Below, piece by piece: positions 1 through 18,603 of a DNA stretch of 64,000 bases. This stretch comes from Escherichia coli (lineage in GTDB: Bacteria; Pseudomonadota; Gammaproteobacteria; Enterobacterales; Enterobacteriaceae), in the NCBI RefSeq assembly GCF_044324785.1, contig NZ_CP172127.1. One strand, given 5' to 3'. Every line of letters begins with the position of its first letter. Position 1 is the stretch's first letter. The position numbers and the translations under genes were made by a program. A model generated the notes under the pieces. It saw nothing but the letters and a program-made list of their open reading frames with translations, ran no database searches and was not told the origin of the DNA.

Positions 1-177
1 TGCCGCCCTGTATTGCAGCAGATGCTGGCAGTTTATCCGCGCCTGGAAAACTACGTCGACGAGCGAAACCATGTTGCCAAAGCATGGCTGCACTGGCTTG
101 GATTCAGGCTTGAAGAAGCCGCGCCTTATGGTGCTCTTGGTCTTAATTTCCACAGATTTCACATGGAGAGAAAATAA
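1..177 (+). CDS. 3' end of a phage virion-module gene (58 codons, truncated by the window edge)
   Basis: Frame 1 is open from the edge to TAA at 175-177. The stop overlaps the next ATG (TAATG coupling). No function can be assigned. Confidence 0.45.
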   Translation, partial: CRPVLQQMLAVYPRLENYVDERNHVAKAWLHWLGFRLEEAAPYGALGLNFHRFHMERK

Positions 178-3235: not shown

Positions 3236-5034
3236 GTTACTTTGGCCTTAATCCAGTAAACCAGAATCAGCAGCTTGACGAAGCAGCATCAAATCCAGCT
3301 GGCTTTAACAGCGATGTTGGTTTTTTCGACAATGCTGTAGGAGCGGCATTGTCTGGTTTGTACTCCGGGCTGGTGGCAAAGCCAGATCAGTTGCTATGGG
3401 CAGGGATGGATAAAATCGTATCCCCGATTGCTCAGTTTATTAACGAAAACACCTCGCTCAATGATACTTCAGTTTCATACATTGCCGAGCAGAGAAAACT
3501 AGCAGAGCAGCAGGTTAAGCGGCTGACGCCTGATGCCGCGACAACCGGAACCGCCGGGCAGGTTCTTTATGGGTTGTTCGATATGGGCGGGCAGGCTGTT
3601 GTCGGTACAACGCTCGGTGGTCCTGTCGGAGGTGCAGCGGCGGTAACTTCGCTACAGGGTTTTTCTGAGTTTGAACGGCTGACAGCACAGGGTGTTGATT
3701 TCAGGACGGCGCAGGAAGCGGGATTAGTGCAGGGCATTACTGCTGGTGCCGGAACACTGATCCCTATGAGCCTCGGGTTACGTGCTGGTGGTGCGCTGGC
3801 GGAAGGTGTGGCGGCTCAGCTTGCGCGGGCGGGTGAGAGTTCAGTGCGACGCGCCGCAGCAACAGCAGTACGTGCAACGCCAGATATTGCCTATGCCGCA
3901 GGTACAAATATTGCGTTCGGTATGGCACAGCGTGGGCTTACTGCAAAAACACTTCGTGATGGTGGCTATAGCGAAATGGCTAACCAGTATGATGTGTTGG
4001 ATCGACAGGCAATTGCTATTGATGCTGTTCTTGGGGTGGCGTTTGGTGGTGTCGGCAGATTTATTAACTCTCGCGGCGAGTCTACAAGCGCACCAAATTT
4101 TTCACCAGTTGATGTTGATGCTGCACTGGCGGCGAATGCCGCTCATCATGCTGAAATTGATATTGCGCCCGGCGTGCCGATCAACGTGCTTTCGCGCAAT
4201 TCTCACATTCAGGCTCTGCGAAAAGCTATGTCTGATGTTAGCCAGGGGAGACCTGTAGACGTTGCCAGCATTGTTGAGTCTGCATCTTTCAGTGAAATTC
4301 CTGGGCGCAAGAGTCTGCTGTCTCAGGCAGTTAATGAGGCTCTGTCATCTGTAGATGATGGAGTAACGGCGCGCGCTATAGAAAATCGGTTGCTTGAAGA
4401 ACAGGCCGCGCAGCTTTTGCCGCGTGGCGATAGACAGGTTTACCAGTCTGAAATAGCTAATAGCCAACGAATTATTGAAAATCTCACTGAACAGCGCGCA
4501 CAAATTCTTGCAGAAGAGCCAACCGGTAGCGGTAAATCTTTGTCTCGTGCTCGATCAGATAAACAGGTCAGACTTCGCGATATTGACCAACGAATCCGGC
4601 AGGCACAAGAACGCCTGGAATTTTCCCGTAACGCGTTGGCACCGCATGAGCCTGGCGGTCAGTTTTTTGAAGCTCGAGCAGAACTGGCACGGAGACAGCA
4701 GGCTGAAAGTGAACTTAATGCTCAGGCTGTTTCATTCTATAAAACAGCAGAGGTCAGGACGCCAGACGAAGTAGCTCCTTTTGAGCCTGATAAAATATTG
4801 CAACAGGCAGAACAAAAAATGATGGCGGATCAGGCAGGAGATATTGATCTGCGCATAGCTGAAGACTCGCTGCTTGAATCACCTGACATGATAATCACCG
4901 TGCTGGATGATGATGGTAATCCACAATCGCGCAGCGCGCGTGAAGTACTGGATGAAGCGAACAGGGAAAGTGAGCAGGCAATACAGGATTCCAGCCTGTT
5001 TGATGTCGCTGTGGCGTGTTTCTTGAGAGGTTAA
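3232..5034 (+). CDS. ejection/internal virion protein (600 aa)
   Basis: ATGA overlap with the upstream gene. Gly/Ala-rich hydrophobic N-terminal half and a charged coiled-coil-like C-terminal half, as in podovirus ejection proteins. Confidence 0.6.
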   Translation: MSYFGLNPVNQNQQLDEAASNPAGFNSDVGFFDNAVGAALSGLYSGLVAKPDQLLWAGMDKIVSPIAQFINENTSLNDTSVSYIAEQRKLAEQQVKRLTPDAATTGTAGQVLYGLFDMGGQAVVGTTLGGPVGGAAAVTSLQGFSEFERLTAQGVDFRTAQEAGLVQGITAGAGTLIPMSLGLRAGGALAEGVAAQLARAGESSVRRAAATAVRATPDIAYAAGTNIAFGMAQRGLTAKTLRDGGYSEMANQYDVLDRQAIAIDAVLGVAFGGVGRFINSRGESTSAPNFSPVDVDAALAANAAHHAEIDIAPGVPINVLSRNSHIQALRKAMSDVSQGRPVDVASIVESASFSEIPGRKSLLSQAVNEALSSVDDGVTARAIENRLLEEQAAQLLPRGDRQVYQSEIANSQRIIENLTEQRAQILAEEPTGSGKSLSRARSDKQVRLRDIDQRIRQAQERLEFSRNALAPHEPGGQFFEARAELARRQQAESELNAQAVSFYKTAEVRTPDEVAPFEPDKILQQAEQKMMADQAGDIDLRIAEDSLLESPDMIITVLDDDGNPQSRSAREVLDEANRESEQAIQDSSLFDVAVACFLRG

Positions 5035-5039
5035 ATTAA

Positions 5040-7514
5040 ATGAGACAGGAATGTATACAAGCGGTCCAGCAGGCGGCGCAGCGCACGTTAACGGCGCGAG
5101 AAATACAGAACATTGAAGACCGCATTTATCGAAATATGCGCTCCATTGCTCGTGATGACCCGATGTCGTGGAGACAACTTTCCGAATCAGAGCGGCTATA
5201 TCGTGCAGCACAATTGGCATCTGAAGAATTACAGCGAGAAGCGGCATTAAAGAAACGTCGTGTGGCCCTCACTATAGCCGCACGTCAGAGATTGGATAAA
5301 TTTATCAATAGCTATCAAGGGGCTGATGGGAAACTTGGCGCTCTTAACCGTACTATTGCTTTTAATGCAGACGGTAAATCGAATTTCCTCTCTGTTGAAT
5401 CCAGAACAAAAGCCACTCGTGATTATGCATTGAGTCAATTGCAGGAGGCATTTGAAGCAGTTGATCCTCGCTTTTTTGGCCTGTTTGAAGATGAAGCTGG
5501 CGTGCGTGACCTGGTATATGAAATGCGAGGGCAAAATACTGGCAATGCTAAAGCAAGAAAAGGTGCTAAGGCGTGGAGAGAAGTGACAGAGCTACTGCGC
5601 CGCCGGTTTAATGATGCTGGTGGGGACATTGGCTATCTCGAAAACTGGGGGCTCCCTCAACATCATTCTATGGAAAAGGTTGGGGCGGTATCAAAGGATA
5701 AGTGGGTTAGCGATGTTATAGGTAAGCTGGATCGCAAATATTATACCCGAGTCGATGGACAACTGATGAACGATGCCGAGTTGTCTGCATTTCTTGGAGA
5801 GGCTTATAACACGATCGCTACTGGTGGGCTGAATAAGCTTACTGATACCGGAATGCGAATTTCCGGCGCACGTGCTAACCGGGGTAATGCATCACGACAG
5901 ATACATTTCAAAGATGCAGATTCCTATCTGCAATATCAGCAACTTTATGGCGATCGCTCTCTATGGGAAATCATGGTCGGTCACCTGGAAGGTATCAGTA
6001 AAGATATTGCACTGGTGGAAACATATGGCCCAAACCCCGATCATGTTTTCCGCTCTCTTCTTGATCAGGTGAAGGCAGAAACGGCAACAGCTAACCCGAG
6101 TAAAACCGGTAAAGTCGAGCGGCTGGCGAACAACACAGAGAATCTGTACAACTTTATTTCCGGAAAGACACAGCCTGTAGCGAATCCGCACATCGCGCGA
6201 TGGTCTGACAATATCCGCAACTGGCTGGTTGCCAGCAGACTCGGATCCGCGTTGCTGTCATCGTTCTCTGATCTTGGAACCATGTATCTGTCTGCGAAGG
6301 TTACCAACCTTCCAATGAACCAGTTATTCCGCAACCAGCTTGAAGCTATGGACCCAACGAACCGTACAGAACTTGCGCGGGCGCGCCGCGCTGGTCTGGC
6401 GATGGAATCTCTACTTGGCAGCGTTAACCGCTGGGCGATGGATAATATGGGGCCGTCTGTGTCTCGTTGGGCTGCAACGGCGGTAATGCGTGCCAGTGGG
6501 CTTACAGCATGGTCAGATGCGCACAAGCGCGCCTATGGCGTAACCATGATGGGAAGCCTGGGAGAAGTAGTGTCACGGACACCAGACCTTCGTAGCCTCG
6601 ATGATTCTGATTTTCGTATCCTGAAAAGCAAAGGGATTACTGACACAGACTGGAGCGTATGGAAGCTGGCGCAACAGGAGGACTGGGGGAACGGTAATAA
6701 TACGATGCTGACACCGGAAAGCATTATGCGTATCCCTGATTCAGCAGTTAAACATCTTGGTGAGCCTGAACGCGTGAAATTTGAGGCAATGCGTAAACTG
6801 CTCGGTGCCGTAACTGAAGAAGTTGATATGGCTGTTATTACACCGGGTGCACGTGAGCAACTGATAACCGGTTCTGGTATTCAGCGTGGAACATGGAAAG
6901 GTGAATTAACGAGAAGTGTTTTCCTGTTTAAATCGTTCCCTATCTCGGTGGTTATGCGTCACTGGTCACGCGCTATGGGTATGCCGTCGGCTGGTGGGCG
7001 TGCGGCATATATTGCGACGTTTATTGCCAGTACGACCATTCTTGGCGCTTTGTCGCAGCAACTTAACGACCTTGCGTCTGGTCGTAATCCTCGCGAGATG
7101 ACAGGAGAAGATGCTGCTAAATTTTGGCTTGGTGCTCTACTGAAAGGTGGTGGTCTTGGCCTTTACGGTGACTTTTTATTGTCAGATCACACTAGGTACG
7201 GAAGCGGCGCGCTGGCGTCGATGCTTGGCCCGGTAGCTGGTCTGGTTGATGACGTAGTGAAGATTGCTCAGGGCATACCGTTAAATGCTGTGGAAGGGAA
7301 GAATGAGCAGACTGGTGGTGATCTGGTTAAGCTGGGGAAAGGTCTGATGCCAGGTGCGAATCTCTGGTACTTAAAGGCGGCTCTCGATCACATGATCTTT
7401 AACCAGATGCAGGAGTATTTTTCACCAGGTTATTTGCGTAAAATGGAGCAACGTTCGAAGAAAGAGTTTAACCAGACATACTGGTGGCGACCACAGGATG
7501 TCACTCCGCAATAA
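5040..7514 (+). CDS. ejection/internal virion protein (824 aa)
   Basis: Starts 5 nt after the upstream stop. Hydrophobic glycine-rich C-terminal segments (FWLGALLKGGGLGLYGDFLL). Last gene of the plus-strand virion operon. Confidence 0.6.
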   Translation: MRQECIQAVQQAAQRTLTAREIQNIEDRIYRNMRSIARDDPMSWRQLSESERLYRAAQLASEELQREAALKKRRVALTIAARQRLDKFINSYQGADGKLGALNRTIAFNADGKSNFLSVESRTKATRDYALSQLQEAFEAVDPRFFGLFEDEAGVRDLVYEMRGQNTGNAKARKGAKAWREVTELLRRRFNDAGGDIGYLENWGLPQHHSMEKVGAVSKDKWVSDVIGKLDRKYYTRVDGQLMNDAELSAFLGEAYNTIATGGLNKLTDTGMRISGARANRGNASRQIHFKDADSYLQYQQLYGDRSLWEIMVGHLEGISKDIALVETYGPNPDHVFRSLLDQVKAETATANPSKTGKVERLANNTENLYNFISGKTQPVANPHIARWSDNIRNWLVASRLGSALLSSFSDLGTMYLSAKVTNLPMNQLFRNQLEAMDPTNRTELARARRAGLAMESLLGSVNRWAMDNMGPSVSRWAATAVMRASGLTAWSDAHKRAYGVTMMGSLGEVVSRTPDLRSLDDSDFRILKSKGITDTDWSVWKLAQQEDWGNGNNTMLTPESIMRIPDSAVKHLGEPERVKFEAMRKLLGAVTEEVDMAVITPGAREQLITGSGIQRGTWKGELTRSVFLFKSFPISVVMRHWSRAMGMPSAGGRAAYIATFIASTTILGALSQQLNDLASGRNPREMTGEDAAKFWLGALLKGGGLGLYGDFLLSDHTRYGSGALASMLGPVAGLVDDVVKIAQGIPLNAVEGKNEQTGGDLVKLGKGLMPGANLWYLKAALDHMIFNQMQEYFSPGYLRKMEQRSKKEFNQTYWWRPQDVTPQ

Positions 7515-7523
7515 GGAAGTGTT

Positions 7524-7697
7524 GTGTTTTTAATTATTTTGAGTGTGATAATTTCTGGTGGATTGTTATTTATTGACCGCTACAAATATTTTCTTAACCC
7601 TCAGACTCAAGCTATTTGCTGGTTCATCTTTGTTGTGCAGGGAGTAGTTCTTGTTGCAAGCCTTATTGAGGGGAGGCCTCTTATTTTTACTGGGTAA
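7524..7697 (+). CDS. candidate small membrane protein (57 aa, GTG start)
   Basis: AAGGAAG at 7513-7519, GTG at 7524. Two hydrophobic helices (FLIILSVIISGGLLF; ICWFIFVVQGVVLVASLI). Not in the ORF track. Confidence 0.3.
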   Translation: MFLIILSVIISGGLLFIDRYKYFLNPQTQAICWFIFVVQGVVLVASLIEGRPLIFTG

Positions 7698-7710
7698 ATT
7701 AGGTGACTAC

Positions 7711-8007
7711 ATGCAAGCTATAGGATTCATTGTTTATATCGTCGTTGGTCTTTTTCAGTTGGCAGCAATTATGGCTGGGCTTGAATCATGGTGGGGATTG
7801 CACTGGATAATTGCAGCCCCCATTGCTTTCATCGTGAGCTATATTCCATTTGTTGGAGCGATTGTTGGTATGGTTGGCGCTGTGGATGTATGGCGGTGGG
7901 AGTGGTGGCAGGCTGGCCTTCTCTTCTTTGGTGGGATCATCTTTGCTATTGTCTGCGGTGGAATGTCATCATTTTTCGAATGGCTATCATTCAGAAAAGG
8001 GACGTGA
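7711..8007 (+). CDS. small integral membrane protein (98 aa, about 3 TM)
   Basis: AGGTGA lies 4 nt upstream of ATG 7711 (track start 7651 is TTG). Trp-rich hydrophobic sequence. Followed by a terminator. Confidence 0.55.
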   Translation: MQAIGFIVYIVVGLFQLAAIMAGLESWWGLHWIIAAPIAFIVSYIPFVGAIVGMVGAVDVWRWEWWQAGLLFFGGIIFAIVCGGMSSFFEWLSFRKGT

Positions 8008-8015
8008 CATGTCAC

Positions 8016-8040
8016 AGGCCGCTTTCGCGGCCTTGTTTTT
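8016..8040 (+). terminator. rho-independent terminator after the small membrane-protein genes
   Basis: AGGCCGC-TTTC-GCGGCCT hairpin followed by TGTTTTT. Confidence 0.65.
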
Positions 8041-8200
8041 AACGAATGCCACCGCCGCCTGGGCGGGAATCCGCAGAACGCCCACCGCAGCGTGAGCCGT
8101 CAGCAGCAGTGTCGCTGTCGTGCTGACAACGACCGGCAAAGGCCTGAGTTGAAGCTACCAGAGACAACAAAACGAACAGTGCAGCAAATGCTTTTTTCAT
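8039..8200 (-). CDS. candidate secreted mini-protein (53 aa precursor, about 31 aa mature, 2 Cys)
   Basis: Internal ATG at 8200 gives MKKAFAALFVLLSLVASTQAFA, a textbook Sec signal with an AFA cleavage site. TTGACG-16-TATAGA lies upstream at about 8210-8240. The gene sits after the terminator at 8273-8293. Confidence 0.4.
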   Translation of the reverse strand: MKKAFAALFVLLSLVASTQAFAGRCQHDSDTAADGSRCGGRSADSRPGGGGIR

Positions 8201-8272
8201 TGTGACATTTCCATCTATAAGCCACCTCAATGTGGCGTCAATGAGTGTAGCACTGACTTTTGTTTCGTCCAC

Positions 8273-8293
8273 AAAAAAGCCCGCAGCGCGGGC
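8273..8293 (-). terminator. rho-independent terminator of the 8921-8293 cassette
   Basis: Minus strand reads GCCCGC-GCT-GCGGGC followed by TTTTTT. Confidence 0.75.
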
Positions 8294-8733
8294 TATTCTT
8301 CTTCATCATTAAAAAGCGGATTGTTGTTTCCATCTGATGAAAGGAAAGGTATGTGTTCTCTTGAAAATCCAACAATGACAATTTCATTATCATTTTTTGC
8401 ATAATGAATGCATTCATTAGAATGCCTTCCGCCAGGGTTGAAATTTAAGTTAATGGTATAATTCTTAAATGTGTTTGGATACCATGTTGGCCCACAATGA
8501 TAATGCCAATAATTCTCTTGCTCATAATTGTCTGAGCCGGGAATTTTATCATGGTTATCATCAACCCACGAGGGCTTGTTTTTTCCAACAAGCGCCCTTC
8601 CATTGGCAACATCCTCTAAAAAACTTTGTATGATTTTTATTTCATCATCAGTAAGGAAAGGTCCGTCTACAGCGAAAGGGGTGTTGCTTTCCCCATGTAG
8701 AAAACTATTAGATATTCTAATGTTAAACTTCAA
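8293..8733 (-). CDS. hypothetical cytoplasmic protein, 146 aa, AT-rich; possibly YafO-like toxin fold (weak)
   Basis: No in-frame ATG is available downstream of the track start, which overlaps the 8754-8921 gene in another frame. TTG at 8733 is preceded by AGGAG with a 6 nt spacer. Motifs YWHYHCGP and SNECIHY..IVIVGFSREH resemble the HxHL and SDxxLVY...aH layout I recall for YafO. Acidic tail NDEEE. Confidence 0.5.
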   Translation of the reverse strand: MKFNIRISNSFLHGESNTPFAVDGPFLTDDEIKIIQSFLEDVANGRALVGKNKPSWVDDNHDKIPGSDNYEQENYWHYHCGPTWYPNTFKNYTINLNFNPGGRHSNECIHYAKNDNEIVIVGFSREHIPFLSSDGNNNPLFNDEEE

Positions 8734-8753
8734 GGAAAACTCCTGATGTGCTT

Positions 8754-8921
8754 CTATTTGGAGCGAAATGCCGCCTTGAAGTCGCTGAAAGATGTTCCTG
8801 TCTGGTAAACCATATCCTTGTCGCGCTCTTTGCTTGCGCGGCCAAGCATAACTTTTCCAATGACATCCCAGCATTGCTTGGCTTGTTCATTGTGCTGAGT
8901 ACGATTTTTCAACGCTGTCAT
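8754..8921 (-). CDS. small basic protein, 55 aa, first gene of the cassette (candidate regulator or antitoxin)
   Basis: Perfect SD AAGGAGG lies 6 nt upstream of ATG 8921. TAG stop lies 20 nt before the downstream TTG start. Missed by the ORF track (under 60 aa). Confidence 0.5.
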   Translation of the reverse strand: MTALKNRTQHNEQAKQCWDVIGKVMLGRASKERDKDMVYQTGTSFSDFKAAFRSK

Positions 8922-8933
8922 ATCGCGCCTCCT

Positions 8934-8948
8934 TTACCTTTAAGGTAA
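8934..8948 (-). promoter_or_regulatory. inverted repeat O1 (TTACC-TTTAA-GGTAA) abutting a -10-like hexamer
   Basis: Minus strand reads TTGCAG-17nt-TACTAT, then TACTATTACCTTAAAGGTAA, followed directly by the SD of the 55-aa gene. Confidence 0.4.
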
Positions 8949-8996
8949 TAGTACGCTATTCACCCACAGTCTGCAATCTGTACAGAATTATTTAAA

Positions 8997-9012
8997 GGCA
9001 CATCCCTGTGCC
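8997..9012 (-). terminator. hairpin downstream of the antirepressor gene
   Basis: Minus strand reads GGCACA-GGGA-TGTGCC followed by TTTAAATAATT (weak U tract). Confidence 0.4.
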
Positions 9013-9020
9013 ACCGCCCG

Positions 9021-9713
9021 TCAGAAGAACCCTGCTTTGTCGTTGATGTACTCCGCGTGCGTCTGGATATCACGCAGGCATTTGCTCACACCGACGATGT
9101 AGCAGAACATGGTGGTCAGCTCCGCCGCCGCGCCCGATACGTCGTGCCCGTCTTCCTGTAACTGGTTCAGCAGATTCATCAGCAGTGAGTTCTCCGTCAG
9201 GCCGAGAACACCAGACGGCGAATGAATCAGGCTGCGGTAGCCGGGCTTCAGCGGGGCGCTGTAGGTTTTGTTCTCTATCTTCATCGCCTGCATTACTGCT
9301 GACGCCGTGGCGTTGGCTACCTGGTCGGCAACCATCTTTATGCGTTCTTCCTGCGGGAGCGAGTTTTTAATGTAACTTCCGGTGCGACGGATCTGAGGAA
9401 GAACCTCACCTGTAACCCATTCAAGAAATCTGAATGCTCTCGTTCCCTCTGTCATTGCCTCTTTGCAACGCAGAATAAGGATGTAGAGACCTGATTCTGA
9501 AACGATGGATAGTTCTTGTATTCCACCAGGGGTCTGTATTGAATACAGCCCCTTTTTGTTCCAGCCTTTTTTATCAAGTTTTCTCGCTTGTGTAACATCA
9601 ATATTCAAAGCATTGCACACATCTTTGGTGACAAACCAAGGTTCTCCGTCAATCATGAACATACGGATCTGGCAGGATGACTCAAAGGAAAAGATGGAAG
9701 GTTTGGTATTCAT
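9021..9713 (-). CDS. Bro-N domain antirepressor (Ant-like), 230 aa
   Basis: ATG at 9713 has AGGTGA upstream. The N-terminus FSFESSCQIRMFMIDGEPWFVTKDVCNALNI is the classic Bro-N signature. The C-terminal ~65 aa are paralogous to the product of 10024-10281. Confidence 0.8.
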   Translation of the reverse strand: MNTKPSIFSFESSCQIRMFMIDGEPWFVTKDVCNALNIDVTQARKLDKKGWNKKGLYSIQTPGGIQELSIVSESGLYILILRCKEAMTEGTRAFRFLEWVTGEVLPQIRRTGSYIKNSLPQEERIKMVADQVANATASAVMQAMKIENKTYSAPLKPGYRSLIHSPSGVLGLTENSLLMNLLNQLQEDGHDVSGAAAELTTMFCYIVGVSKCLRDIQTHAEYINDKAGFF

Positions 9714-9739
9714 GGCGATCACCTTTGTAGTTAGGTTAA

Positions 9740-9790
9740 TCACCACCGCTGAGACCAATCAGATGGTGGTGAACTGTGCAGAGTTGGTCT
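9740..9790 (-). promoter_or_regulatory. ant leader hairpin (hexaloop GACCAA/UUGGUC) plus adjacent complementary box; potential pseudoknot
   Basis: 8 bp stem 9740-9747/9765-9772 and 4 bp stem 9749-9752/9759-9762 close a hexaloop at 9753-9758. TTGGTCT at 9784-9790 is complementary to the loop plus one closing nucleotide. Confidence 0.4.
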
Positions 9791-9861
9791 TACCGGCTAC
9801 AAAGGAACCCGGCGCACCTTTCGGTGCCCCCACACAGCCCACCATAGAATAGGTGCGCTTT

Positions 9862-9893
9862 ACACATAAAAAAACCGCTTATGCGGCATATGT
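9862..9893 (-). terminator. terminator-like element inside the spacer
   Basis: Minus strand reads CACATATGCCGCATAAGCGGTTTTTTTATGTG. A short GCCGC/GCGGT stem with a U7 run is flanked by CACATA/TATGTG. Confidence 0.35.
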
Positions 9894-9900
9894 GCCTCTG

Positions 9901-9954
9901 TAGTAATCCGGGAGACCAATCCCGGCACTGGATTTTGCCAGTGCCTGATTACTA
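9901..9954 (-). ncRNA. candidate structured RNA: 54 nt three-way junction
   Basis: Closing stem TAGTAATC/GATTACTA (8 bp). Arm 1: 5 bp CGGGA/TCCCG with hexaloop GACCAA. Arm 2: 8 bp GGCACTGG/CCAGTGCC. All pairs are Watson-Crick. Strand assigned from context only. Confidence 0.35.
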
Positions 9955-9964
9955 TGGCACAAGA

Positions 9965-10005
9965 GGAGTGCTTATATTTACCGCAAAGGTAAATATAAGC
10001 ACTCC
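9965..10005. repeat. perfect 18 bp inverted repeat (5 nt spacer) whose centre is O3 (TTACC-GCAAA-GGTAA)
   Basis: GGAGTGCTTATATTTACC-GCAAA-GGTAAATATAAGCACTCC, lying 19 nt downstream of the stop of the 85-aa gene. Confidence 0.8.
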
Positions 10006-10020
10006 AGTTGGTAATTACAA
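9992..10020 (-). promoter_or_regulatory. candidate sigma70 promoter reading into the structured spacer and ant
   Basis: Minus strand reads TTGTAA-17nt-TATATT, with the -10 directly abutting O3 (TATATTTACCTTTGCGGTAA). Confidence 0.35.
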
Positions 10021-10023
10021 ACC

Positions 10024-10281
10024 TTATCTGGTTTGTTTTCGTAATTGTTCGGCACAATAGTCTAGATGTGTTTGCAGATCCTGCATAGACATCTGTGAGC
10101 TGGTGACGTAGTTAATCAGTGCAGTCAGTTCGGCAAGTGGGCCATCGACATTAAATCCATCCTTATCGAGATCCCGGAGTAATTTCATCAAGTGCGATCC
10201 CTCCACCAGTGACCTGACGCCTCCCGGCGTGTGAATCCTTTCGGTAAATCCGTCTTCCAGTGGATAGTGATACTGCTGCAT
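10024..10281 (-). CDS. small protein (85 aa) paralogous to the Ant C-terminal domain; candidate SOS-induced antirepressor
   Basis: ATG at 10281 has GGAG upstream (the track start at 10299 is TTG). About 45 percent identity by eye over about 62 aa with the Ant C-terminus (IHxPxGV..L.E.S.LM.LL..L..DG..V.G..AELT...Y......D.QTH..Y). Confidence 0.65.
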   Translation of the reverse strand: MQQYHYPLEDGFTERIHTPGGVRSLVEGSHLMKLLRDLDKDGFNVDGPLAELTALINYVTSSQMSMQDLQTHLDYCAEQLRKQTR

Positions 10282-10300
10282 CTTATCTTCTCCATGCAAT

Positions 10301-10320
10301 AACTGTATAAATATACAGTA
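10301..10320. promoter_or_regulatory. LexA (SOS) box
   Basis: AACTGTATAAATATACAGTA against consensus TACTGTATATATATACAGTA (18/20, CTG-N10-CAG intact). It lies 20 nt upstream of ATG 10281 and falls in the spacer of TTGATA-17-TATTGC on the minus strand. Confidence 0.8.
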
Positions 10321-10357
10321 TCAAATAATTTGTTTGCTATCCAGCACGTTTTGCAAA

Positions 10358-10372
10358 TCACCTGAAAGGTAA
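10358..10372 (-). promoter_or_regulatory. inverted repeat O2 (minus strand TTACC-TTTCA-GGTGA) abutting a -10-like hexamer
   Basis: Minus strand reads TAGATA-17nt-GATATT, with GATATTACCTTTCAGGTGA. On the plus strand the same site lies in the spacer of TTGCAA-16-TATCTT, which faces the tailspike gene. Confidence 0.35.
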
Positions 10373-10476
10373 TATCTTTTCGTATTTATGGATTATCTAT
10401 CCATATGTGGTTTTTCAGGTAATAGAATAACCAGATATGCGGCGCAACGGGTGCTGCGACTATCTGGAGATTTAAC

Positions 10477-13233
10477 ATGACGGTCTCAACCGAAGTTGAC
10501 CACAACGAATACACCGGTAACGGCGCTACGACATCATTTCCGTATACCTTCCGTATTTTCAAAAAATCCGACCTGGTTGTTCAGGTGTCTGACCTGAACG
10601 GGAACGTAACAGAATTGGTTCTGGATACCGGTTATACGGTAACTGGGGCGGGCACTTATAGTGGCGGTTCTGTTGTTCTTCCGTCGCCGCTTGCTGCTGG
10701 ATGGCGAATTACGATAGATCGTGTGCTTGATGTAGTGCAGGAGACAGACCTTCGCAATCAGGGAAAATTTTTCCCCGAAGTGCATGAAGATGCTTTTGAC
10801 TACCTGACGATGCTGATCCAGCAATGTTTTGGGTGGTTCAGACGTGCATTGATGAAACCATCTTTGCTTGCAAAATATTACGATGCAAAGCAAAACAGAA
10901 TTTCTAACCTTGCAGATCCATCACTTGAGCAGGATGCTGTAAATAATCGCTCAATGCGTAATTATGTTGATGCTGCAATCGCCGGAGTTGTTGGTGGTTT
11001 TGGTTGGTTTATTCAGTATGGTTCTGGAGCAGTATACCGAACGTTCCAGGATAAGATGCGGGATAACGTTAACGCTCTTGATTTTGTTCCGTTTGAGCAA
11101 AGATATGCTGCATTAAATTTTGAAGTTGATGCGTCTGAATGGTTAATTAATGCGATAAATTCTGGTGCAAGTGTCGTTAGAATACCTGCAGGTAAATGGA
11201 TGATTTCTAAGAACATAGATGTGCCTCCTGGAGTGTCATTAATTGGTGATGGCATTGATTATTGGGATACATATAGACCAGCGCCTGAAAGATTATTAAA
11301 AAGTTGGAGTAAAGGAACCCATCTTGTATTTACTGGTGATGGAGAAAAAAACAAATATTTTTTTAACATCTCTAATGAAAGACCAGTTAAAATTGTTGAA
11401 GGGATATCTTGTAAGTTCACTGAGTTTACAAATGAAGATTCTGTAGGTGTTACTCCTGCTACACCAAAAGCCATGAGCGTAGCTGTTAGTATCAACAGGG
11501 CATCACAGTTACGCAACCTGAGAATAATGGTAAGTAAAAATGGTATTGAAGGATACAATAACCCTGATTCTTATTCATTGGGTGATGACTGGGATATAGG
11601 GTTGCATGTATACGATAGCTGTGATTCAGTTATTGATAACGTACAGATTGTCGGCTATTGGAGGGTAAAAGGACTACTACTGACAGAAAATGACGGGAGC
11701 CTTTCAATGAAGGGAAATCCTGAAAAAACGCACTTTAATAACGTTTATGTCCAGTCAGGGATCGCGATAAGGAATAGCCCTCAGATTGATCTTGTAAGTA
11801 ATACTGAAAGCTCAGTGACATTTAAACATAAAAAGTCGATGAGAATAACTTCAGTTAAACAGTTTAAAATTGCTGGCAGTGAATTAGTATATACGTATTC
11901 AGATGCATCATTTGATGGAACTAACATCACACTATCTGGTATTTCTCCTGAAATACAAGGTACAATAAGTGTAATCAGGTTTCCGTCAATTGGTAATAAT
12001 TTTAGCGGGACTGTTTTTGAGAATACAGTAGCCACTACTCTTGATCATACATCAGGTAAGCCATCAGAATACTTTGGCCTTCCTGCATCCTTTGCATTAG
12101 AGGTTGATGGTTTCCCTGTTCGTAATTTAAGGTTTGATAAATTCAAAGCTCAAACAACATTTGATAAAGGAAATTGCATTTTTGGTGATTGCCGTGATGT
12201 TAAAATAACATCATCTGAGTTTGAAAATGGAATTATGATTGCGTATAACCTGACCGAGACTCAGGGTTATACAGGAAATCTTAGATTTTTTGCTTCTGAT
12301 CTTCAGAGCAGCGTTAACACAAGTGAGTTTAAACCAAGAGACGCATTTGTAGACAATAGACAAATAAAAACGGAGTTTACTGATGGTTCGTTCATTATAA
12401 AGAACTGGAGGCCTACAGATACAAAAATACAATGGTCGTCTGGAGCAGATGCTATTGTTCTTAGAGAGTCACCTGACGAACAATCAAACGGAAATATTTA
12501 CGGGCATCACATTGATGGTAAAAGATGGATTAATGTTAGTGGATATAACAAAGATATAAATATTTCATCAAGAAACTTAAGCGTAAAAAACCATGGTGAT
12601 GACTCTGCAGTTATTAATATATTCGGCGACTCTGGAAATATTGCCATTAAAGGTAATTTTTCACCAATTATTGATAACAGCAAATCTCTTGGTGCACCAT
12701 CATTTAGATGGGCACAGGTTTATTCTGCGAACGGTTCGATAAACACATCAGATGGTAGAGAAAAAAGTGAACCGATTAGTACAAGTGAGCTCAGCTTGTA
12801 TATGTCTCGTGGTTATGAAGGTGATGCAATTCTGGATGCATGGGGAGATATCAGGATTGTAGCTTTTCGCTGGCTTGATGCCGTCAGGGAAAAGGGAGAT
12901 GGTGCCCGCTGGCATTTTGGTGTTATAGCACAACAAGTGAGAGACGCTTTCCTCGCGCATGGGATTGATGGAACCAGATTTGGCCTTCTCTGTTACGATG
13001 AATGGGATGATAAATACGCGCCAGTGATGGCGGTAAGGATGATCACTAAAGTTGTGGATGGCGTCGAAATTGAGATGGAAGAAGAATACGAAACAGAAGA
13101 GCGAACTCTGGTTTGCAAGGCTGGAAATAGGTGGGGTATCCGTACTGACCAGTGTTTATGGCTTGAGTCAGCTTATTTGCGTAGAAGAATCGAAAAAATA
13201 GAATCACGTCTTGCAATGCTTGAAAGTAGCTAA
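10477..13233 (+). CDS. tailspike (918 aa): conserved N-terminal adaptor, AT-rich beta-helix-like receptor-binding core, C-terminal S74 intramolecular chaperone
   Basis: GGAG lies 8 nt upstream. N-terminus as in epsilon15-type tailspikes (recollection). Repetitive N/G/S/V-rich core. The C-terminus has the SDGREK cleavage-type motif and a WHFGVIAQQV...FGLLCYDEWD block typical of peptidase S74 chaperone domains. Confidence 0.85.
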   Translation: MTVSTEVDHNEYTGNGATTSFPYTFRIFKKSDLVVQVSDLNGNVTELVLDTGYTVTGAGTYSGGSVVLPSPLAAGWRITIDRVLDVVQETDLRNQGKFFPEVHEDAFDYLTMLIQQCFGWFRRALMKPSLLAKYYDAKQNRISNLADPSLEQDAVNNRSMRNYVDAAIAGVVGGFGWFIQYGSGAVYRTFQDKMRDNVNALDFVPFEQRYAALNFEVDASEWLINAINSGASVVRIPAGKWMISKNIDVPPGVSLIGDGIDYWDTYRPAPERLLKSWSKGTHLVFTGDGEKNKYFFNISNERPVKIVEGISCKFTEFTNEDSVGVTPATPKAMSVAVSINRASQLRNLRIMVSKNGIEGYNNPDSYSLGDDWDIGLHVYDSCDSVIDNVQIVGYWRVKGLLLTENDGSLSMKGNPEKTHFNNVYVQSGIAIRNSPQIDLVSNTESSVTFKHKKSMRITSVKQFKIAGSELVYTYSDASFDGTNITLSGISPEIQGTISVIRFPSIGNNFSGTVFENTVATTLDHTSGKPSEYFGLPASFALEVDGFPVRNLRFDKFKAQTTFDKGNCIFGDCRDVKITSSEFENGIMIAYNLTETQGYTGNLRFFASDLQSSVNTSEFKPRDAFVDNRQIKTEFTDGSFIIKNWRPTDTKIQWSSGADAIVLRESPDEQSNGNIYGHHIDGKRWINVSGYNKDINISSRNLSVKNHGDDSAVINIFGDSGNIAIKGNFSPIIDNSKSLGAPSFRWAQVYSANGSINTSDGREKSEPISTSELSLYMSRGYEGDAILDAWGDIRIVAFRWLDAVREKGDGARWHFGVIAQQVRDAFLAHGIDGTRFGLLCYDEWDDKYAPVMAVRMITKVVDGVEIEMEEEYETEERTLVCKAGNRWGIRTDQCLWLESAYLRRRIEKIESRLAMLESS

Positions 13234-13254
13234 ATATTGAGGATTAATCTTAGT

Positions 13255-13299
13255 AGCCGACTTGCTTATTACGAAGTAAGTTCGGCTTCTTTCTTCTTT
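13255..13299 (+). terminator. rho-independent terminator after the tailspike
   Basis: AGCCGACTTGCTT...AAGTAAGTTCGGCT stem (one bulge, one GU pair) followed by TCTTTCTTCTTT. Confidence 0.7.
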
Positions 13300-13462
13300 A
13301 ATTGTGACTGAGAGGTACACTAGACCATTTTCTGAACGAAATTTTCATTGCCGTAGAAGGTAGAAATACAGCGTTTTGAGGTAACTATTATCCTTAAATG
13401 GTTTATTATGTGTGAATCTTCAATAGTAAGGAGATTGTTATGCGTAATAAACGGTGTTCATT

Positions 13463-13867
13463 ATGTCAGCCCATCTAACTACTGATTCTTTAAATCAATG
13501 GCTTAGTGTGAGCTCTCTTGCTGCAGTTATCGTAGGCGTTCCGCCAGAGGTGGCGCTCGGTGCTCTTGCTGGTGCGGTAATTTTTGTTACCTCTGCGGTA
13601 GAGTACCCAATTCATCGTCGCGTACTCTTATCGATGCTTAGCTTTCTCTGTGGACTTCTTTTCTACAAACCAGCAGCATCAATTCTTATCGGCATAGCCA
13701 GCCTGATCCCTACCATCACGCAGGACTCTTTTGAAAAAGGGATTGTTTTCTCTGCTGGCGCATTCGTGTCAGCAATTGTCGCTGTGCGTATTGGTATATG
13801 GCTCTACCACCGTTCAGACAATCCACGCGATTTAATTCCGGGGAGAAAAGACGATGGTAACGCATGA
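13463..13867 (+). CDS. holin-like membrane protein (134 aa, about 4 TM)
   Basis: First gene of the lysis cassette and strongly hydrophobic. The start is uncertain (GTG 13454 or ATG 13463; neither has a good SD). Confidence 0.5.
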   Translation: MSAHLTTDSLNQWLSVSSLAAVIVGVPPEVALGALAGAVIFVTSAVEYPIHRRVLLSMLSFLCGLLFYKPAASILIGIASLIPTITQDSFEKGIVFSAGAFVSAIVAVRIGIWLYHRSDNPRDLIPGRKDDGNA

Positions 13868-14162
13868 GTTTTTTTTGCTTATCACCAATGCAGTTATTTG
13901 TACTGGCATAGCAATTCGCGTTGTCACATTCCGGCGTAACGGCTCTCAACATCGAAGATGGGGAGGGTGGCTTGCTTATTTCCTTATTGTTGCTGCGGCC
14001 AGTATTCCTGTTCGTGTCGTCTATGCAATCTGGTTACGCACGCCAATGGCTGTGGATTTATCTGAGGTCATTATCAACGCTGTCATGCTTGCCGCGGTTA
14101 TTAAAACACGCGGTAACGTTGTTCAGATTTTCAAAATATCGAGGTCTAAACATGGAGATTAA
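13854..14162 (+). CDS. holin (102 aa, 3 TM, basic C-terminus)
   Basis: Overlaps the upstream gene end and the endolysin start. Three TM helices and a charged tail (KISRSKHGD). Confidence 0.6.
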
Positions 14163-14781
14163 ACAATTCCAGCGAGCTGCTGGTATTAGCGAGGCGCTGG
14201 CCGCACGCTGGTTCTCGCATATAACTTCTGCGATGAAAGAGTTTGGTATCAGCAAAGCAGAAGATCAGGCAATGTTTATTGCTCAAGTCGGGCATGAGTC
14301 TGGGGGCTTCACCAGGTTGCAGGAGAATTTCAACTACAGTGTCAGCGGACTGGCTAACTTCGTTCGGGCTGGGCGTCTCACTCAGGGGCAGGCTAATGCA
14401 CTGGGTCGCCATGCTGGTGAACCACCATTGCCACTCGAGCGCCAGCGAGCGATTGCCAATCTGGTGTACAGCAAACGCATGGGGAACAATGCCCCCGGCG
14501 ATGGCTGGAATTACCGTGGCCGCGGACTTATCCAGATTACCGGTTTGAATAACTATCGTGATTGCGGAAACGGCCTGAAAGTGGACCTGCTGGAGAATCC
14601 TGAACTGTTGGCGCAGGACGAATACGCGGCTCGTAGCGCGGCGTGGTTCTTCTCCAGCAAAGGTTGCATGAAGTATACCGGCGATATTGCACGTGTAACT
14701 CTGATTATCAATGGTGGCAGGAATGGCATCGACGACCGGCGCGCGCGGTACGTCACTGCCAGTAAGGTGCTGGCGGTATGA
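14152..14781 (+). CDS. endolysin, glycoside hydrolase family 19 (chitinase-like), 209 aa
   Basis: Start at ATG 14152 ([11 protein letters not shown]), not the track start at 13921. Has the [12 protein letters not shown] catalytic-region motif and [12 protein letters not shown], both typical of GH19 phage lysins. Confidence 0.85.
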
Positions 14782-15260
14782 TCTGGGCATTCGTAAAAGC
14801 ATACTGGAAACAGTTGATTATCGTGGCAGTGCTTGCTGTTCTGGTCATATCAGGAGTTGTTGCCTGGAATGTACACGGTATCCGTCAGTACGACGCCGGG
14901 TATGCGCAGGCGAAAGAAGACTGCAAAGCCGAAGAAGAAAAAGTTCGTCAGTACTACGAACAGGAGAAAGTGACCAATGAACGTGAAGCTCAGCAGAGGA
15001 TCGACCAGGCGCGCAATGATGCTCTTGATGCTGCCGCTAGCGCTGGCCGGTTGCAGCAACAACTCTTTGCCATCCGTGAGCAGCTCAGGCAGTATAACGC
15101 CATTGTCGGCGCTGGGTCGTCAGCCGCAGACACCGGAGTTTTGCTTGCCGACGTGCTCAGCAAATCTCTCGAGAGAAACAGACAACTGGCAGAGTATGCT
15201 GACCGGGCAGCCGAAGCCGGAAGAGTCTGCGAAAAACAGTACGACACTTTGACCAGATAG
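14778..15260 (+). CDS. i-spanin (Rz-like), 160 aa
   Basis: ATGA overlap with the endolysin. N-terminal TM helix followed by a charged coiled-coil periplasmic domain. Confidence 0.8.
14977..15252 (+). CDS. o-spanin (Rz1-like) lipoprotein, fully embedded in the +1 frame of Rz
   Basis: Signal peptide with the lipobox LALAGC. Pro/Ser-rich mature part. Lies entirely inside 14778-15260. Confidence 0.75.
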   Translation: MNVKLSRGSTRRAMMLLMLPLALAGCSNNSLPSVSSSGSITPLSALGRQPQTPEFCLPTCSANLSRETDNWQSMLTGQPKPEESAKNSTTL

Positions 15261-15370
15261 CATGGCATTTTTCATGGTACTGATTTCCGGTGACGGTATA
15301 TAAAACGGTACGGGAAAAATTGAGATTTGGAAAAATGTTATCACTCAATTGGTTATGGTTATCGTAAATA

Positions 15371-15385
15371 ATTGAGTGGGAATGA
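15371..15385 (+). other. guaA: native guaA 3' end (IEWE-stop) retained at the prophage right junction (attR core region)
   Basis: ATT GAG TGG GAA TGA matches my recollection of the GuaA C-terminus ...ATIEWE. An in-frame TAA lies immediately upstream, so homology starts here. Confidence 0.55.
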
Positions 15386-15408
15386 TTTGACCCTGCACTA
15401 TGAATGAA

Positions 15409-15439
15409 CAAAACCCTCTGTTACTACAGAGGGTTTTTT
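15409..15439. terminator. bidirectional terminator (guaA / yfgI)
   Basis: AAAAC-CCTCTG-TTACTA-CAGAGGG-TTTTTT. Confidence 0.8.
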
Positions 15440-15477
15440 ATCTTCAAGAATTATAGGCTTGAAGTTACTTACATCGA

Positions 15478-16017
15478 TTAATTAAACCAGCTGTCCGATT
15501 TGTTCTCTTCTGCTTTGCCCACGCTTTTCATCAGATCGCGACCGCCCTCAGTCATATTCCTGTTTGCGTCAGCTTCAGATTGCACCACATCGGTTTGCGC
15601 AGCTTTGTGCTTCAGTTCCTGATCGATAAATTCGTTTTCGCGCTTAACGCGGGCTTCTTCTTTCGCCAGCGCCAGTTTTTGTTTCTGAATCTCTAAGCTG
15701 CGTAGCTCATCTTCATAACTTTGATCGCGTTTTTTGTCCGCAGTGGCTTCGGCGTCCAGTTTATCCTGACGAGCTTTCTTATTTGCCGCTGCCGTTGCCG
15801 CTCTTTTATTAGCGGCGGCCTGGGCATTTGCGCGACGTTGCTTCTCTTGCTGGATTTCCCTGTTGCGCTCCGCGACCCATTCGTCATGCTGCCTTTGCTC
15901 TTCATTTTTACCTTGCTGTTCCGCTTCTGCGACAGCAGAGAGTTGATCCTGCAATGATGAGGCGATAGCCGGATAGCTTAAGGAGGCTAAGATGGCGCAA
16001 AGAAAAACTTTCTTCAT
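15478..16017 (-). CDS. yfgI: YfgI, periplasmic Lys/Ala/Gln-rich protein (179 aa)
   Basis: Signal peptide and a charged repeat body. Matches K-12 YfgI by recollection and synteny. Confidence 0.9.
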   Translation of the reverse strand: MKKVFLCAILASLSYPAIASSLQDQLSAVAEAEQQGKNEEQRQHDEWVAERNREIQQEKQRRANAQAAANKRAATAAANKKARQDKLDAEATADKKRDQSYEDELRSLEIQKQKLALAKEEARVKRENEFIDQELKHKAAQTDVVQSEADANRNMTEGGRDLMKSVGKAEENKSDSWFN

Positions 16018-16032
16018 GACTCCTCCTGATTA

Positions 16033-16551
16033 TTAGCTCTTTTCAGGACATTTGGTATTTGGCTGAATACGCGTTTCGTTATACGTCGTGGTAATAACAA
16101 CGGCTAAACCTGTCGTAAACTGGCACTCTTTACCCACCTGGGTGGAGGTATACACTTTGGTGCCTTCCTTATACGTTAGAGAAACACCTTCCACTAAGGT
16201 TTTATCATTCACCATAGAACCTGCTGCCGCGCCTACAGCTCCGCCGCCAACTGCACCTGCCGTCGTTCCGGAATTGCTGCCAGACCCGACGTTGTGGCCA
16301 ATAACACCGCCAGCGACTGCACCAATAAGCGCGCCGAAGGCTTGTGCGTTTCGTTTATTTTGGGAGTTGTCTACGGCAACTTTTGCGGGAAGAATGGAAA
16401 TAATATTAACGGTTTTAGTTTCTTGTTTGGTATTCAGTTGATCGGTTTGATAAACATCGGCGGCATGATCATCAGCATTTGACTGGCATCCTGCCAGAGT
16501 GAATGACGCTAACATTGCCACAGGCAGAAGACATTTTTTAAATTTCATCAC
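16033..16551 (-). CDS. yfgH: YfgH outer-membrane lipoprotein (glycine-zipper), 172 aa
   Basis: Lipobox FTLAGC and a Gly-rich GAVGGGAVGAAAG segment. Confidence 0.92.
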   Translation of the reverse strand: MMKFKKCLLPVAMLASFTLAGCQSNADDHAADVYQTDQLNTKQETKTVNIISILPAKVAVDNSQNKRNAQAFGALIGAVAGGVIGHNVGSGSNSGTTAGAVGGGAVGAAAGSMVNDKTLVEGVSLTYKEGTKVYTSTQVGKECQFTTGLAVVITTTYNETRIQPNTKCPEKS

Positions 16552-16861
16552 TATTCCTTGTTATACACATTACGAAAAATAAGACATTTAAGATCATCAA
16601 AAGAGGAAAGTAAATGTATTGCGTATAAAGGAATAGATTAAATTTATTAAAATTCATGTGGAAAATAATTTATAAAAATACATCATTAAAACATATGTAT
16701 TAATTTTATATTTATTTCGCAGCCAAACAGGATAAACATCAGTCAGGACAAAGACGTAAAATTTAAGATGAAAGAATATCTGCCGCTTTGATAATCCCAA
16801 AGAGCAAAAGCATCCGACAGCGAGGTGCCGTTATGTTCTGTGAAAGTGGAGAAGGTAACCG

Positions 16862-17053
16862 CTAACGTTGTACCGGTGATTCGACGGAGAGTGTGGATTG
16901 CTGAGCTTCTTTTTTGCTCTGATGGTGCTGCCATGCACCGACGGACGAGTAGATAAAACGGCCAAAGAAGAAGATAAAGCTGATGAGCAGTACGATACGG
17001 GTCATGCGACTGTTAAATCGGTGTCGTTTTCGCATACTGGTTGCCTGACTCAC
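16862..17053 (-). CDS. yfgG: YfgG small membrane protein (63 aa)
   Basis: Single TM helix IVLLISFIFFFGRFIY. Synteny with K-12. Confidence 0.85.
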   Translation of the reverse strand: MSQATSMRKRHRFNSRMTRIVLLISFIFFFGRFIYSSVGAWQHHQSKKEAQQSTLSVESPVQR

Positions 17054-17262
17054 AAAAGGTTCCTTGAAGTATGTCCCACGCTGTGGACGGTACTTACATT
17101 AAGGCACAACAGGACAAAATGGTCAATTCTTCGTTATGTAAAAAAGCGTCAGTGGATACATATTTTAATGTTATGGAAGTTAATTTAATTATTTACAATG
17201 ATGATGTAATAATGATGAATTAACATGATAAACGTAATAATTCATTAATCAGGGTTATTTTG

Positions 17263-17276
17263 TTTGATATATATCA
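17263..17276 (+). promoter_or_regulatory. perfect FNR box TTGAT-ATAT-ATCAA, now separated from pdeF by IS5
   Basis: Exact match to TTGAT-N4-ATCAA. In the reconstructed pre-insertion sequence its centre is 41.5 bp upstream of the TSS predicted from the TAGAAT hexamer. Confidence 0.75.
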
Positions 17277-17297
17277 ATTGGAACTTTCATATGACAC

Positions 17298-17301
17298 TTA
17301 G
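17298..17301. repeat. IS5 target-site duplication, left copy (TTAG)
   Basis: TTAG directly flanks both ends of the IS. Confidence 0.9.
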
Positions 17302-18496
<1,195 letters not shown>

Positions 18497-18500
18497 TTAG
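18497..18500. repeat. IS5 target-site duplication, right copy (TTAG)
   Basis: Identical to 17298-17301. Confidence 0.9.
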
Positions 18501-18503
18501 AAT
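18498..18503 (+). promoter_or_regulatory. retained -10 hexamer TAGAAT of the pdeF promoter (half of it is the duplicated target)
   Basis: TAGAAT lies about 100 nt upstream of ATG 18604. It is now preceded by the IS5 right end instead of the FNR box. Confidence 0.5.
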
Positions 18504-18603
18504 CAATGCTCTCTATAGTGATGAATAATCATCATTCGAAGTCAGGTGGGATGCCTGTCTGAATACACCTCCTTCAGGATGTGGGGGATTCTGCTGAGCA
18601 TCT

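Follow-up and report, generated by a model that had tools for sequence, protein, structure and literature searches.

Which protein reads three short inverted repeats that are crowded together in the antirepressor region of an Escherichia coli prophage? Repeats of the form TTACC-N5-GGTRA were located by a pattern scan of a 64-kb stretch of contig NZ_CP172127.1 (hereafter, the window) at positions 8934–8948, 9978–9992, and 10358–10372, where an initial annotation of this DNA had reported them; all three are present, far above what is expected by chance. Comparison of the window with related phages indicates that the repeats are very probably operators of the prophage's primary immunity repressor, Rep, which would be encoded outside the window. 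The three sites are:

8934–8948: site 1, putative operator, TTACCTTAAAGGTAA; TTACC-TTAAA-GGTAA read on the minus strand (8948–8934), an exact palindrome
9978–9992: site 2, putative operator, TTACCTTTGCGGTAA; TTACC-TTTGC-GGTAA read on the minus strand (9992–9978), an exact core
10358–10372: site 3, putative operator, TTACCTTTCAGGTGA; TTACC-TTTCA-GGTGA read on the minus strand (10372–10358), one half-site degenerate

The pattern TTACCNNNNNGGTRA matches at four places in the window, while 0.09 matches are expected, and the observed count was never equaled in shuffled sequences; the repeat is thus real rather than a product of chance. Three of the four places fall inside 1.5 kb. The 15-bp core is exact in sites 1 and 2, and the GGTGA half-site that distinguishes site 3 occurs in 14 of 77 IMG/VR loci. 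Promoter-like pairs were sought with a scan requiring 9 of 12 matches to the σ70 consensus, the pairs at sites 1 and 3 being scored by hand count. Only the site 2 promoter passed the scan (9/12), while the pairs at sites 1 and 3 scored 7/12 and 8/12, respectively. The claim that a promoter lies beside every repeat thus stands for site 2, where the different flank types conserve it, finds a 7/12 pair at site 1, and is not supported at site 3, where the pair is not conserved in sequence across 16 loci. The broader proposal, one repressor acting on several leftward promoters, survives, since a single trans-acting repressor bound to operators beside promoter-like elements is the best explanation of the arrangement.

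The three sites lie in what is the anti-immunity module of a Uetakevirus prophage, one of the epsilon15/phiV10-like type. Positions 1–7517 of the window align with phiV10 11822–19338, the window start corresponding to phiV10 coordinate 11822, and the attachment-site core ATTGAGTGGGAATGATT at 15371–15387 is the right end of the prophage, beyond which (from ~15.4 kb) the DNA belongs to the host. This core has been given for phage ZX5 (PMC9782041). It is reported for ZX5, phiV10, and epsilon15. The window carries only the right half of the prophage, and tblastn found no homolog of the repressor or of the cro-like protein in the 64 kb. The Rep gene is inferred from the relatives to lie ~18 kb upstream of the window start. 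Positions 7500–10520 have no 100% match in the complete E. coli genome collection. E. coli Z142-1 has a complete prophage of the same kind at the 3′ end of guaA, and the p55/Bro-Ant/Ant module is shared as well. Read along the minus strand, the module consists of the LexA box, an 85-amino-acid (aa) gene, site 2, IsrK, C4, the Bro-N antirepressor gene, site 1, and a 55-aa gene, in that order.

Conservation of the motif in homologous phages, on which the initial annotation had made its proposal depend, was observed at 8–10 exact copies per genome. Exact TTACC-N5-GGTAA copies number 8 in phiV10, 9 in Tyrion, and 10 in 65FD (whole genomes, 0.04–0.14 expected), and 9 in the stretch of epsilon15 that was read. 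The conserved positions in relatives are non-coding: the interval that separates the repressor gene from its divergent cro-like neighbor holds two or three copies, the stretch just downstream of the repressor gene holds another two or three, and a single copy lies past the cro-like gene; two more follow the replication genes, two are at the small terminase gene, and single copies precede the portal operon, the lysis cassette, and the integrase gene, in addition to the ant-module sites. In SPC32H, three copies fall in the interval from rep to its divergent cro-like neighbor, and a fourth lies upstream of ant. In the Z142-1 prophage, all 15 sites (one mismatch at most) are intergenic or at the 5′ edge of a gene (small terminase); the Rep/cro-like interval holds two of them, and two more are just downstream of Rep. 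Clustering at the divergent rep/cro-like region, together with dispersal at operon heads, is common to phiV10, Tyrion, 65FD, epsilon15, SPC32H, and Z142-1. The three sites of the window therefore do not form a private regulon of an accessory island, as had been suggested, because in the complete close relative they belong to a phage-wide set of 15.

The consensus of 36 exact sites is W-A-TTACC-nnWnn-GGTAA-T-W, with 33 different spacers among them; the half-sites in this set are fixed by the search itself. Fixed half-sites, a free spacer, and the lack of compensatory changes point to recognition by a protein rather than to a structural hairpin. A separate regularity is that operators recur in pairs whose starts are always 62 bp apart, once downstream of the repressor gene and again after the replication genes (phiV10, Tyrion, 65FD, epsilon15, SPC32H, and Z142-1). 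Such a constant distance would be in keeping with a tetrameric Rep that binds cooperatively or loops the DNA. Where the pair follows the replication genes, the ribosome-binding site of the next gene falls within the spacer of its second operator.

Several observations point to Rep as that protein. By Rep we mean the homolog of phiV10 gp40, epsilon15 gp38, and SPC32H Rep, a tetrameric helix-turn-helix protein. In the GenBank record of epsilon15 (AY150271.2), five such 17-mers are marked protein_bind with the note ‘repressor; lysogeny’, and one of them, at 19895–19911 between gp19 (the homolog of the 85-aa protein) and the tailspike gene, is the annotated counterpart of site 3. Published accounts of SPC32H describe Rep as a tetramer with palindromic binding sites, from which tetrameric Ant releases it (PMC9638917; PMC9986798). 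The Rep of Z142-1 has the same sequence as phiV10 gp40, and the latter matches SPC32H Rep (E = 4e-42) with about 42% identity overall, while the helix-turn-helix segment NLVNRW is identical, which fits a shared operator. Overexpression of the repressor of phage ZX5, whose sequence is reported to be the same as that of phiV10 gp40, lowered holin and endolysin transcripts by >99.9% (PMC9782041). Relatives do have a true Rep operator ahead of the lysis cassette, e.g., at phiV10 24692 and at position 41610 of the Z142-1 locus. In the window, which lacks the O-antigen acetyltransferase gene, none was detected before the lysis genes, and positions 13234–13462 hold only a GGTAAC half-site; a match with one mismatch at 13587, inside the reading frame of the first gene of the lysis cassette, is probably due to chance. 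A repressor encoded beyond the window had been offered initially as one of two options. It is the one that the observations favor.

The other option concerned site 1, whose surroundings contain:

8948–8976, minus strand: promoter-like pair TTGCAG (8976–8971), 17 nt, TACTAT (8953–8948), read from the sequence; 7/12
8754–8921, minus strand: 55-aa cargo gene; phrog_8607, a PHROG of unknown function; one of nine alternative cassettes

The TACTAT hexamer and the site 1 operator have one T in common, the last T of the −10 element, and the operator is followed by the ribosome-binding site AGGAGG and by the ATG of the 55-aa gene at 8921. There is no room for a promoter between the repeat and the ribosome-binding site, so the 55-aa gene must be transcribed through the operator. 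The direct downstream position of this gene and the small size of its product, which recalls Arc and Mnt, had led to the suggestion that the 55-aa protein is an Arc/Mnt-like autoregulator acting on all three sites. The distribution of the gene makes this extremely improbable. Among the named phage genomes and species-representative bacterial loci compared, it occurs only in the window, phiv142-3, and HEMP4, and it is absent from phiV10, Tyrion, epsilon15, and 65FD, which carry the 8–10 exact copies each counted above; the 55-aa protein is thus not the general binder of the motif. Eight other, unrelated cassettes occupy the same slot after the same operator, and the protein itself matches no family in Pfam, not even among those of the ribbon-helix-helix type.

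In 53 IMG/VR loci, the site 1 slot combines three unrelated left flanks with nine unrelated right flanks in 17 combinations. Each of the three left-flank types has a −35/−10-like pair 0–14 nt from the operator, and nine different cargo cassettes begin immediately after it; the cassette proteins tested gave no match in Pfam or PADLOC scans. Sequence identity breaks at the operator and unrelated flanks are joined there, so that sites 1 and 2 (three left-flank types in the latter case) are exact mosaic junctions. One could conclude that the repeats are chiefly recombination junctions for module exchange, devoid of a regulatory role, the more so as identity ends exactly at the repeats. We consider this very unlikely, however: the motif is found as well between the repressor and cro-like genes and at operon heads free of mosaicism, the sites have no associated recombinase, and short conserved operators are expected to serve as incidental crossover points.

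Site 2 heads an operon, the elements of which are:

9992–10020, minus strand: upstream promoter-like pair TTGTAA (10020–10015), 17 nt, TATATT (9997–9992); 9/12; overlaps TTACCTTTGCGGTAA
9960–10010: extended palindrome, arms 9960–9982 and 9988–10010, 18 perfect bp per arm
9951–9956, minus strand: likely isrK −10 element CATAGT, 6 nt before the IsrK 5′ end; invariant in 63/63 IMG/VR isrK loci
9868–9944, minus strand: IsrK small RNA with an intrinsic terminator; Rfam RF01394, 74.7 bits (gathering score 50)
9762–9849, minus strand: C4 antisense RNA; Rfam RF01695, 78.6 bits (gathering score 45)
9021–9713, minus strand: second antirepressor, with an N-terminal Bro-N domain (Pfam, 51.4 bits); PHROG anti-repressor families

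The site 2 operator was found in all 63 IMG/VR loci in which isrK was detected, and it occupies the equivalent position, with differing spacers, in Tyrion, C. werkmanii, Erwinia, and Scandinavium. Upstream of it, the three unrelated flank types of the IMG/VR loci all provide TTGnnn, 17–18 nt, and a −10-like hexamer abutting the operator. Below it, the arrangement in relatives is GGTAA-A-TTTACA, 17 nt, CATAGT, 6 nt, and the IsrK 5′ end; in a by-eye alignment this promoter pair matches the TTGACA/TTGACG −35 and TATATT/TATAGT −10 elements of Gifsy-1, Stx2-II, and APSE-1. Judged by these alignments, the isrK-C4-ant operon is headed by two promoter-like elements in tandem, both leftward, with the site 2 operator sandwiched between them.

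In the window, the operator is embedded in the extended palindrome, which substitutes ATATAA for the usual isrK −35 element TTTACA. The palindrome was found in none of the 63 IMG/VR isrK loci, nor in Tyrion, Citrobacter, Erwinia, or Scandinavium, and by this comparison appears to be a derived variant. As RNA, it would form a hairpin of −31.7 kcal/mol (z = −5.9) that begins 19 nt past the stop codon of the 85-aa ant gene. The same palindrome is present at phiV10 20480–20530 with its 5-nt spacer inverted (GCAAA versus TTTGC, same strand), which suggests a hairpin-mediated flip. A hairpin this stable could stop or process read-through from the ant promoter, and the epsilon15 record annotates several RNase III sites elsewhere; the repeats might accordingly be terminators or processing sites, acting as RNA or DNA hairpins and not as operators. 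This is highly improbable. The core stems have 5 bp only, and the predicted fold of site 3 (−5.1 kcal/mol, z = −1.4) is no more stable than those of shuffled controls. What is conserved in the stems is the sequence itself, compensatory changes being absent from the 36 sites, and the extended palindrome is missing from the relatives listed above.

The spacer before ant had been described initially as structured. It is, and its structure can now be ascribed to isrK and C4 RNAs in tandem, the only families that Rfam returns at the gathering threshold. The C4 segment AGACCAA (9790–9784) is complementary to the ant leader at 9760–9751, and the 10-mer GATTGGTCTC occurs twice, in the IsrK loop (9921–9912) and in the ant leader (9760–9751); IsrK could thus serve as a C4 decoy. 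Positions 9944–9954, just 5′ of IsrK, are also complementary to the IsrK body at 9901–9911, in 10 of 11 bases. Such pairing is available only to transcripts from the upstream promoter, which might fold differently. The C-terminal 77 residues (149–225) of the Bro-N protein resemble the 85-aa protein and SPC32H Ant, matching the same PDB chain, 5D50_E (E = 9e-14), as the 85-aa protein does, and the module therefore encodes two antirepressors. The likely Rep-binding domain would thus be present twice, once under LexA and once under IsrK/C4.

The elements next to site 3 are:

10024–10281, minus strand: 85-aa antirepressor, SPC32H Ant homolog; PDB 5D50_E, E = 4e-47, residues 2–84
10303–10318, both strands: LexA box CTGTATATTTATACAG (CTGT-N8-ACAG), read from the sequence; conserved in 16 loci
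10343–10338 (−35, TGGATA) and 10320–10315 (−10, TACTGT), minus strand: likely ant promoter, overlapping the LexA box
10417–10424, minus strand: lone half-site CTATTACC; TATTACC in 16/16 loci, full CTATTACC in 14/16

A scan of species-representative genomes with the 85-aa protein gave five loci, few yet diverse, and the 16 aligned loci come from Escherichia, Salmonella, Enterobacter, Citrobacter, Erwinia, Pseudocitrobacter, and Scandinavium. In this alignment, which includes epsilon15, the site 3 operator is fixed 54 bp upstream of the LexA box; its half-sites are kept, bar one base in some E. coli lineages (the window included), while its spacer varies. The promoter assigned to this site initially, TAGATA (10399–10394), 17 nt, GATATT (10376–10371), is not conserved save for the TATT flank of the operator. 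Invariant instead are TGCTGGATA, 17 nt, and then TACTGT inside the LexA box, and TGGATA-17-TACTGT is our best guess for the promoter of the 85-aa ant. The operator also occupies the 16-nt spacer of a rightward TTGCAA/TATCTT pair directed toward the tailspike gene, the −35-like element of which recurs in relatives; site 3 may thus act on either the ant promoter or this tailspike-facing pair. A fourth half-site had been noted nearby, and it is present at 10424–10417 with an invariant TATTACC core.

The strongest competitor of Rep is the cro-like 77-aa protein (phiV10 gp41, epsilon15 gp39), which might be the main reader of the motif or share the sites with Rep, as in lambda. Homologs of gp41 from phiV10, Tyrion, epsilon15, and 65FD are 76–84% identical, above the values for Rep, which matches the invariance of the motif, and the operators lie in the divergent region between the two genes. 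On the other hand, the epsilon15 record names the repressor as the binder, and NLVNRW is conserved in Rep. We regard the cro-like protein as an unlikely main or joint reader, and operators shared between the two proteins would leave the conclusion intact that the sites belong to the immunity switch. Several points nevertheless weigh against assigning the sites to Rep. The window has no Rep gene, and its Rep allele is deduced from relatives; the link between Rep and the 17-mer comes from the GenBank annotation and genomic placement; the cro-like protein, at 76–84% identity across these phages compared with 42–78% for Rep, is a possible co-reader; the center of site 3 lies near −57 of the assigned ant promoter, which is unusual for simple occlusion; and the palindrome in the window destroys the usual isrK −35 element, so that local wiring may differ from that of relatives.

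From the motif, its conservation and placement, and the protein and RNA homologies described above, we infer Rep binding, the transcription starts, and the following feedback logic. In the lysogen, Rep would occupy the three operators and LexA the LexA box. Rep at site 3 would be positioned between the LexA-gated ant promoter and the tailspike gene; at site 2, it would cover the start of the upstream promoter and abut the −35 element of the isrK promoter; at site 1, it would sit between the weak promoter and the ribosome-binding site of the cargo gene. Upon DNA damage, removal of LexA would allow the 85-aa Ant to be made, and Ant would strip Rep from all operators. Loss of Rep would then open all Rep-controlled promoters, including those of the isrK-C4-Bro-Ant operon and of the cargo slot, and the resulting positive feedback on Rep inactivation would commit the prophage to lytic growth. 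Since GATTGGTCTC is common to IsrK and the ant leader and complementary to the C4 loop, an RNA layer probably sets the threshold, as in Gifsy-1 and P1.

A more inclusive interpretation joins three propositions: that Rep operators are also portable junctions for cassette swapping, that site 1 delimits a hypervariable, Rep-silenced cargo island, and that the two antirepressors form a two-tier cascade. We advance it tentatively, as possible but doubtful in its entirety. Rep would keep the cargo genes off in the lysogen, and their expression would be confined to infection or induction, a timing that would suit early-lytic or anti-defense genes of unknown kind. In the cascade, loss of LexA would yield Ant, Ant would remove Rep, and loss of Rep would release the IsrK/C4-gated Bro-Ant operon.

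Among the closest characterized systems is that of epsilon15/SPC32H (GenBank AY150271.2; PDB 5D50, 5D4Z). It has the same 17-bp ATTACC-N5-GGTAAT motif, with site 3 at the position annotated in epsilon15; the 85-aa protein aligns with SPC32H Ant over 83 residues (E = 4e-47), and the LexA box is 54 bp from the operator. In contrast to the window, epsilon15 and SPC32H have the small ant only and lack the isrK-C4-Bro-Ant operon and the cargo slot, which leaves sites 1 and 2 without an equivalent in these phages. Rep differs as well, the allele of the E. coli lineage being about 42% identical to Salmonella Rep. The three sites of the window thus appear, on the basis of motif and position, to be new members of the operator family already annotated in epsilon15.

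The antirepressor module of P22 immI, the analogy drawn in the initial annotation, likewise stands beside the tailspike gene and has extra layers of control. The module in the window, however, has neither an Arc/Mnt homolog nor sar RNA, the 55-aa protein matches no ribbon-helix-helix family in Pfam, and the P22-type Ant N-terminal domain P22_AR_N scores 17.7 bits in Pfam, below the 30.7 cut-off; control would instead be exerted by the main repressor, LexA, and IsrK/C4. The analogy was therefore abandoned. Because the spacer encodes isrK and C4, P1/P7 immI and the Gifsy-1 isrK operon are better matches.

In P1/P7 immI, the C1 operator Op51 lies at the c4-icd-ant promoter, overlapping one of tandem promoters, and C1 operators are numerous and dispersed. 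The window resembles this system in that a primary-repressor operator (here, a predicted one) heads an operon in which C4 is followed by an antirepressor, the C4 loop complements the ant leader, and operators are many and scattered rather than gathered in two clusters. It differs in that the repressor family and the operator sequence are unrelated, IsrK precedes C4, and the antirepressor is a Bro-N/Ant-like fusion. The mycobacteriophage L5 stoperators offer a parallel for site 1: they are many immunity-repressor sites in short intergenic regions, asymmetric 13-mers oriented with transcription. As in L5, the sites are spread intergenically, and some, lying downstream of promoters by ribosome-binding sites, could block elongation (site 1), but the sites studied here are palindromic.

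The isrK-orf45(STnc1160)-anrP region of Gifsy-1 comprises IsrK with a leaky terminator, a processed C4-like RNA, and a Bro-type antirepressor (PMC4825925). The order of IsrK, C4-like RNA, and Bro-type antirepressor is the same in the window, and the −10 element and IsrK 5′ end align. Gifsy-1, Stx2-II, and APSE-1 differ in having a plain TTGACA/TTGACG −35 element with no TTACC-N5-GGTAA upstream, and a Rep operator at isrK seems, by this comparison, to be specific to the Uetakevirus lineage.

For annotation, it follows that the repeats are to be described as (very probable) Uetakevirus immunity-repressor operators and not as the private regulon of a small accessory protein. In the E. coli members of this phage group, a second, RNA-gated antirepressor operon would be placed under the very repressor that the antirepressors inactivate, and a swappable cargo slot would stand under that repressor too. 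The model predicts a positive-feedback commitment step and cargo genes that are on in the lytic phase but not in the lysogen. The dual antirepressor wiring and the behavior of the junctions and cargo slot extend the known system and are the parts worth pursuing.

Some minor features of the DNA around site 3 were also recorded. A σ54 reading of the conserved TGCTGGATA/TTTGCA block was rejected upon inspection, since the block lacks the GG and would have a GG/GC spacing of 9 instead of 11. The LexA box exists in two variants, CTGTATAAATATACAG (58 loci) and CTGTATATTTATACAG (nine loci and the window), each the reverse complement of the other; the box is palindromic except for its asymmetric core, which has thus also been inverted between lineages. 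On the plus strand, the 5′ leader of the tailspike gene can form a hairpin at 10426–10472 (CCAGATATGCGGCGCA...TGCTGCGACTATCTGG), the 3′ arm of which enters the GGAG ribosome-binding site. The outer arms of this hairpin appear to be conserved in the 16-locus alignment, and the hairpin could act on the tailspike message by controlling its translation or its processing.

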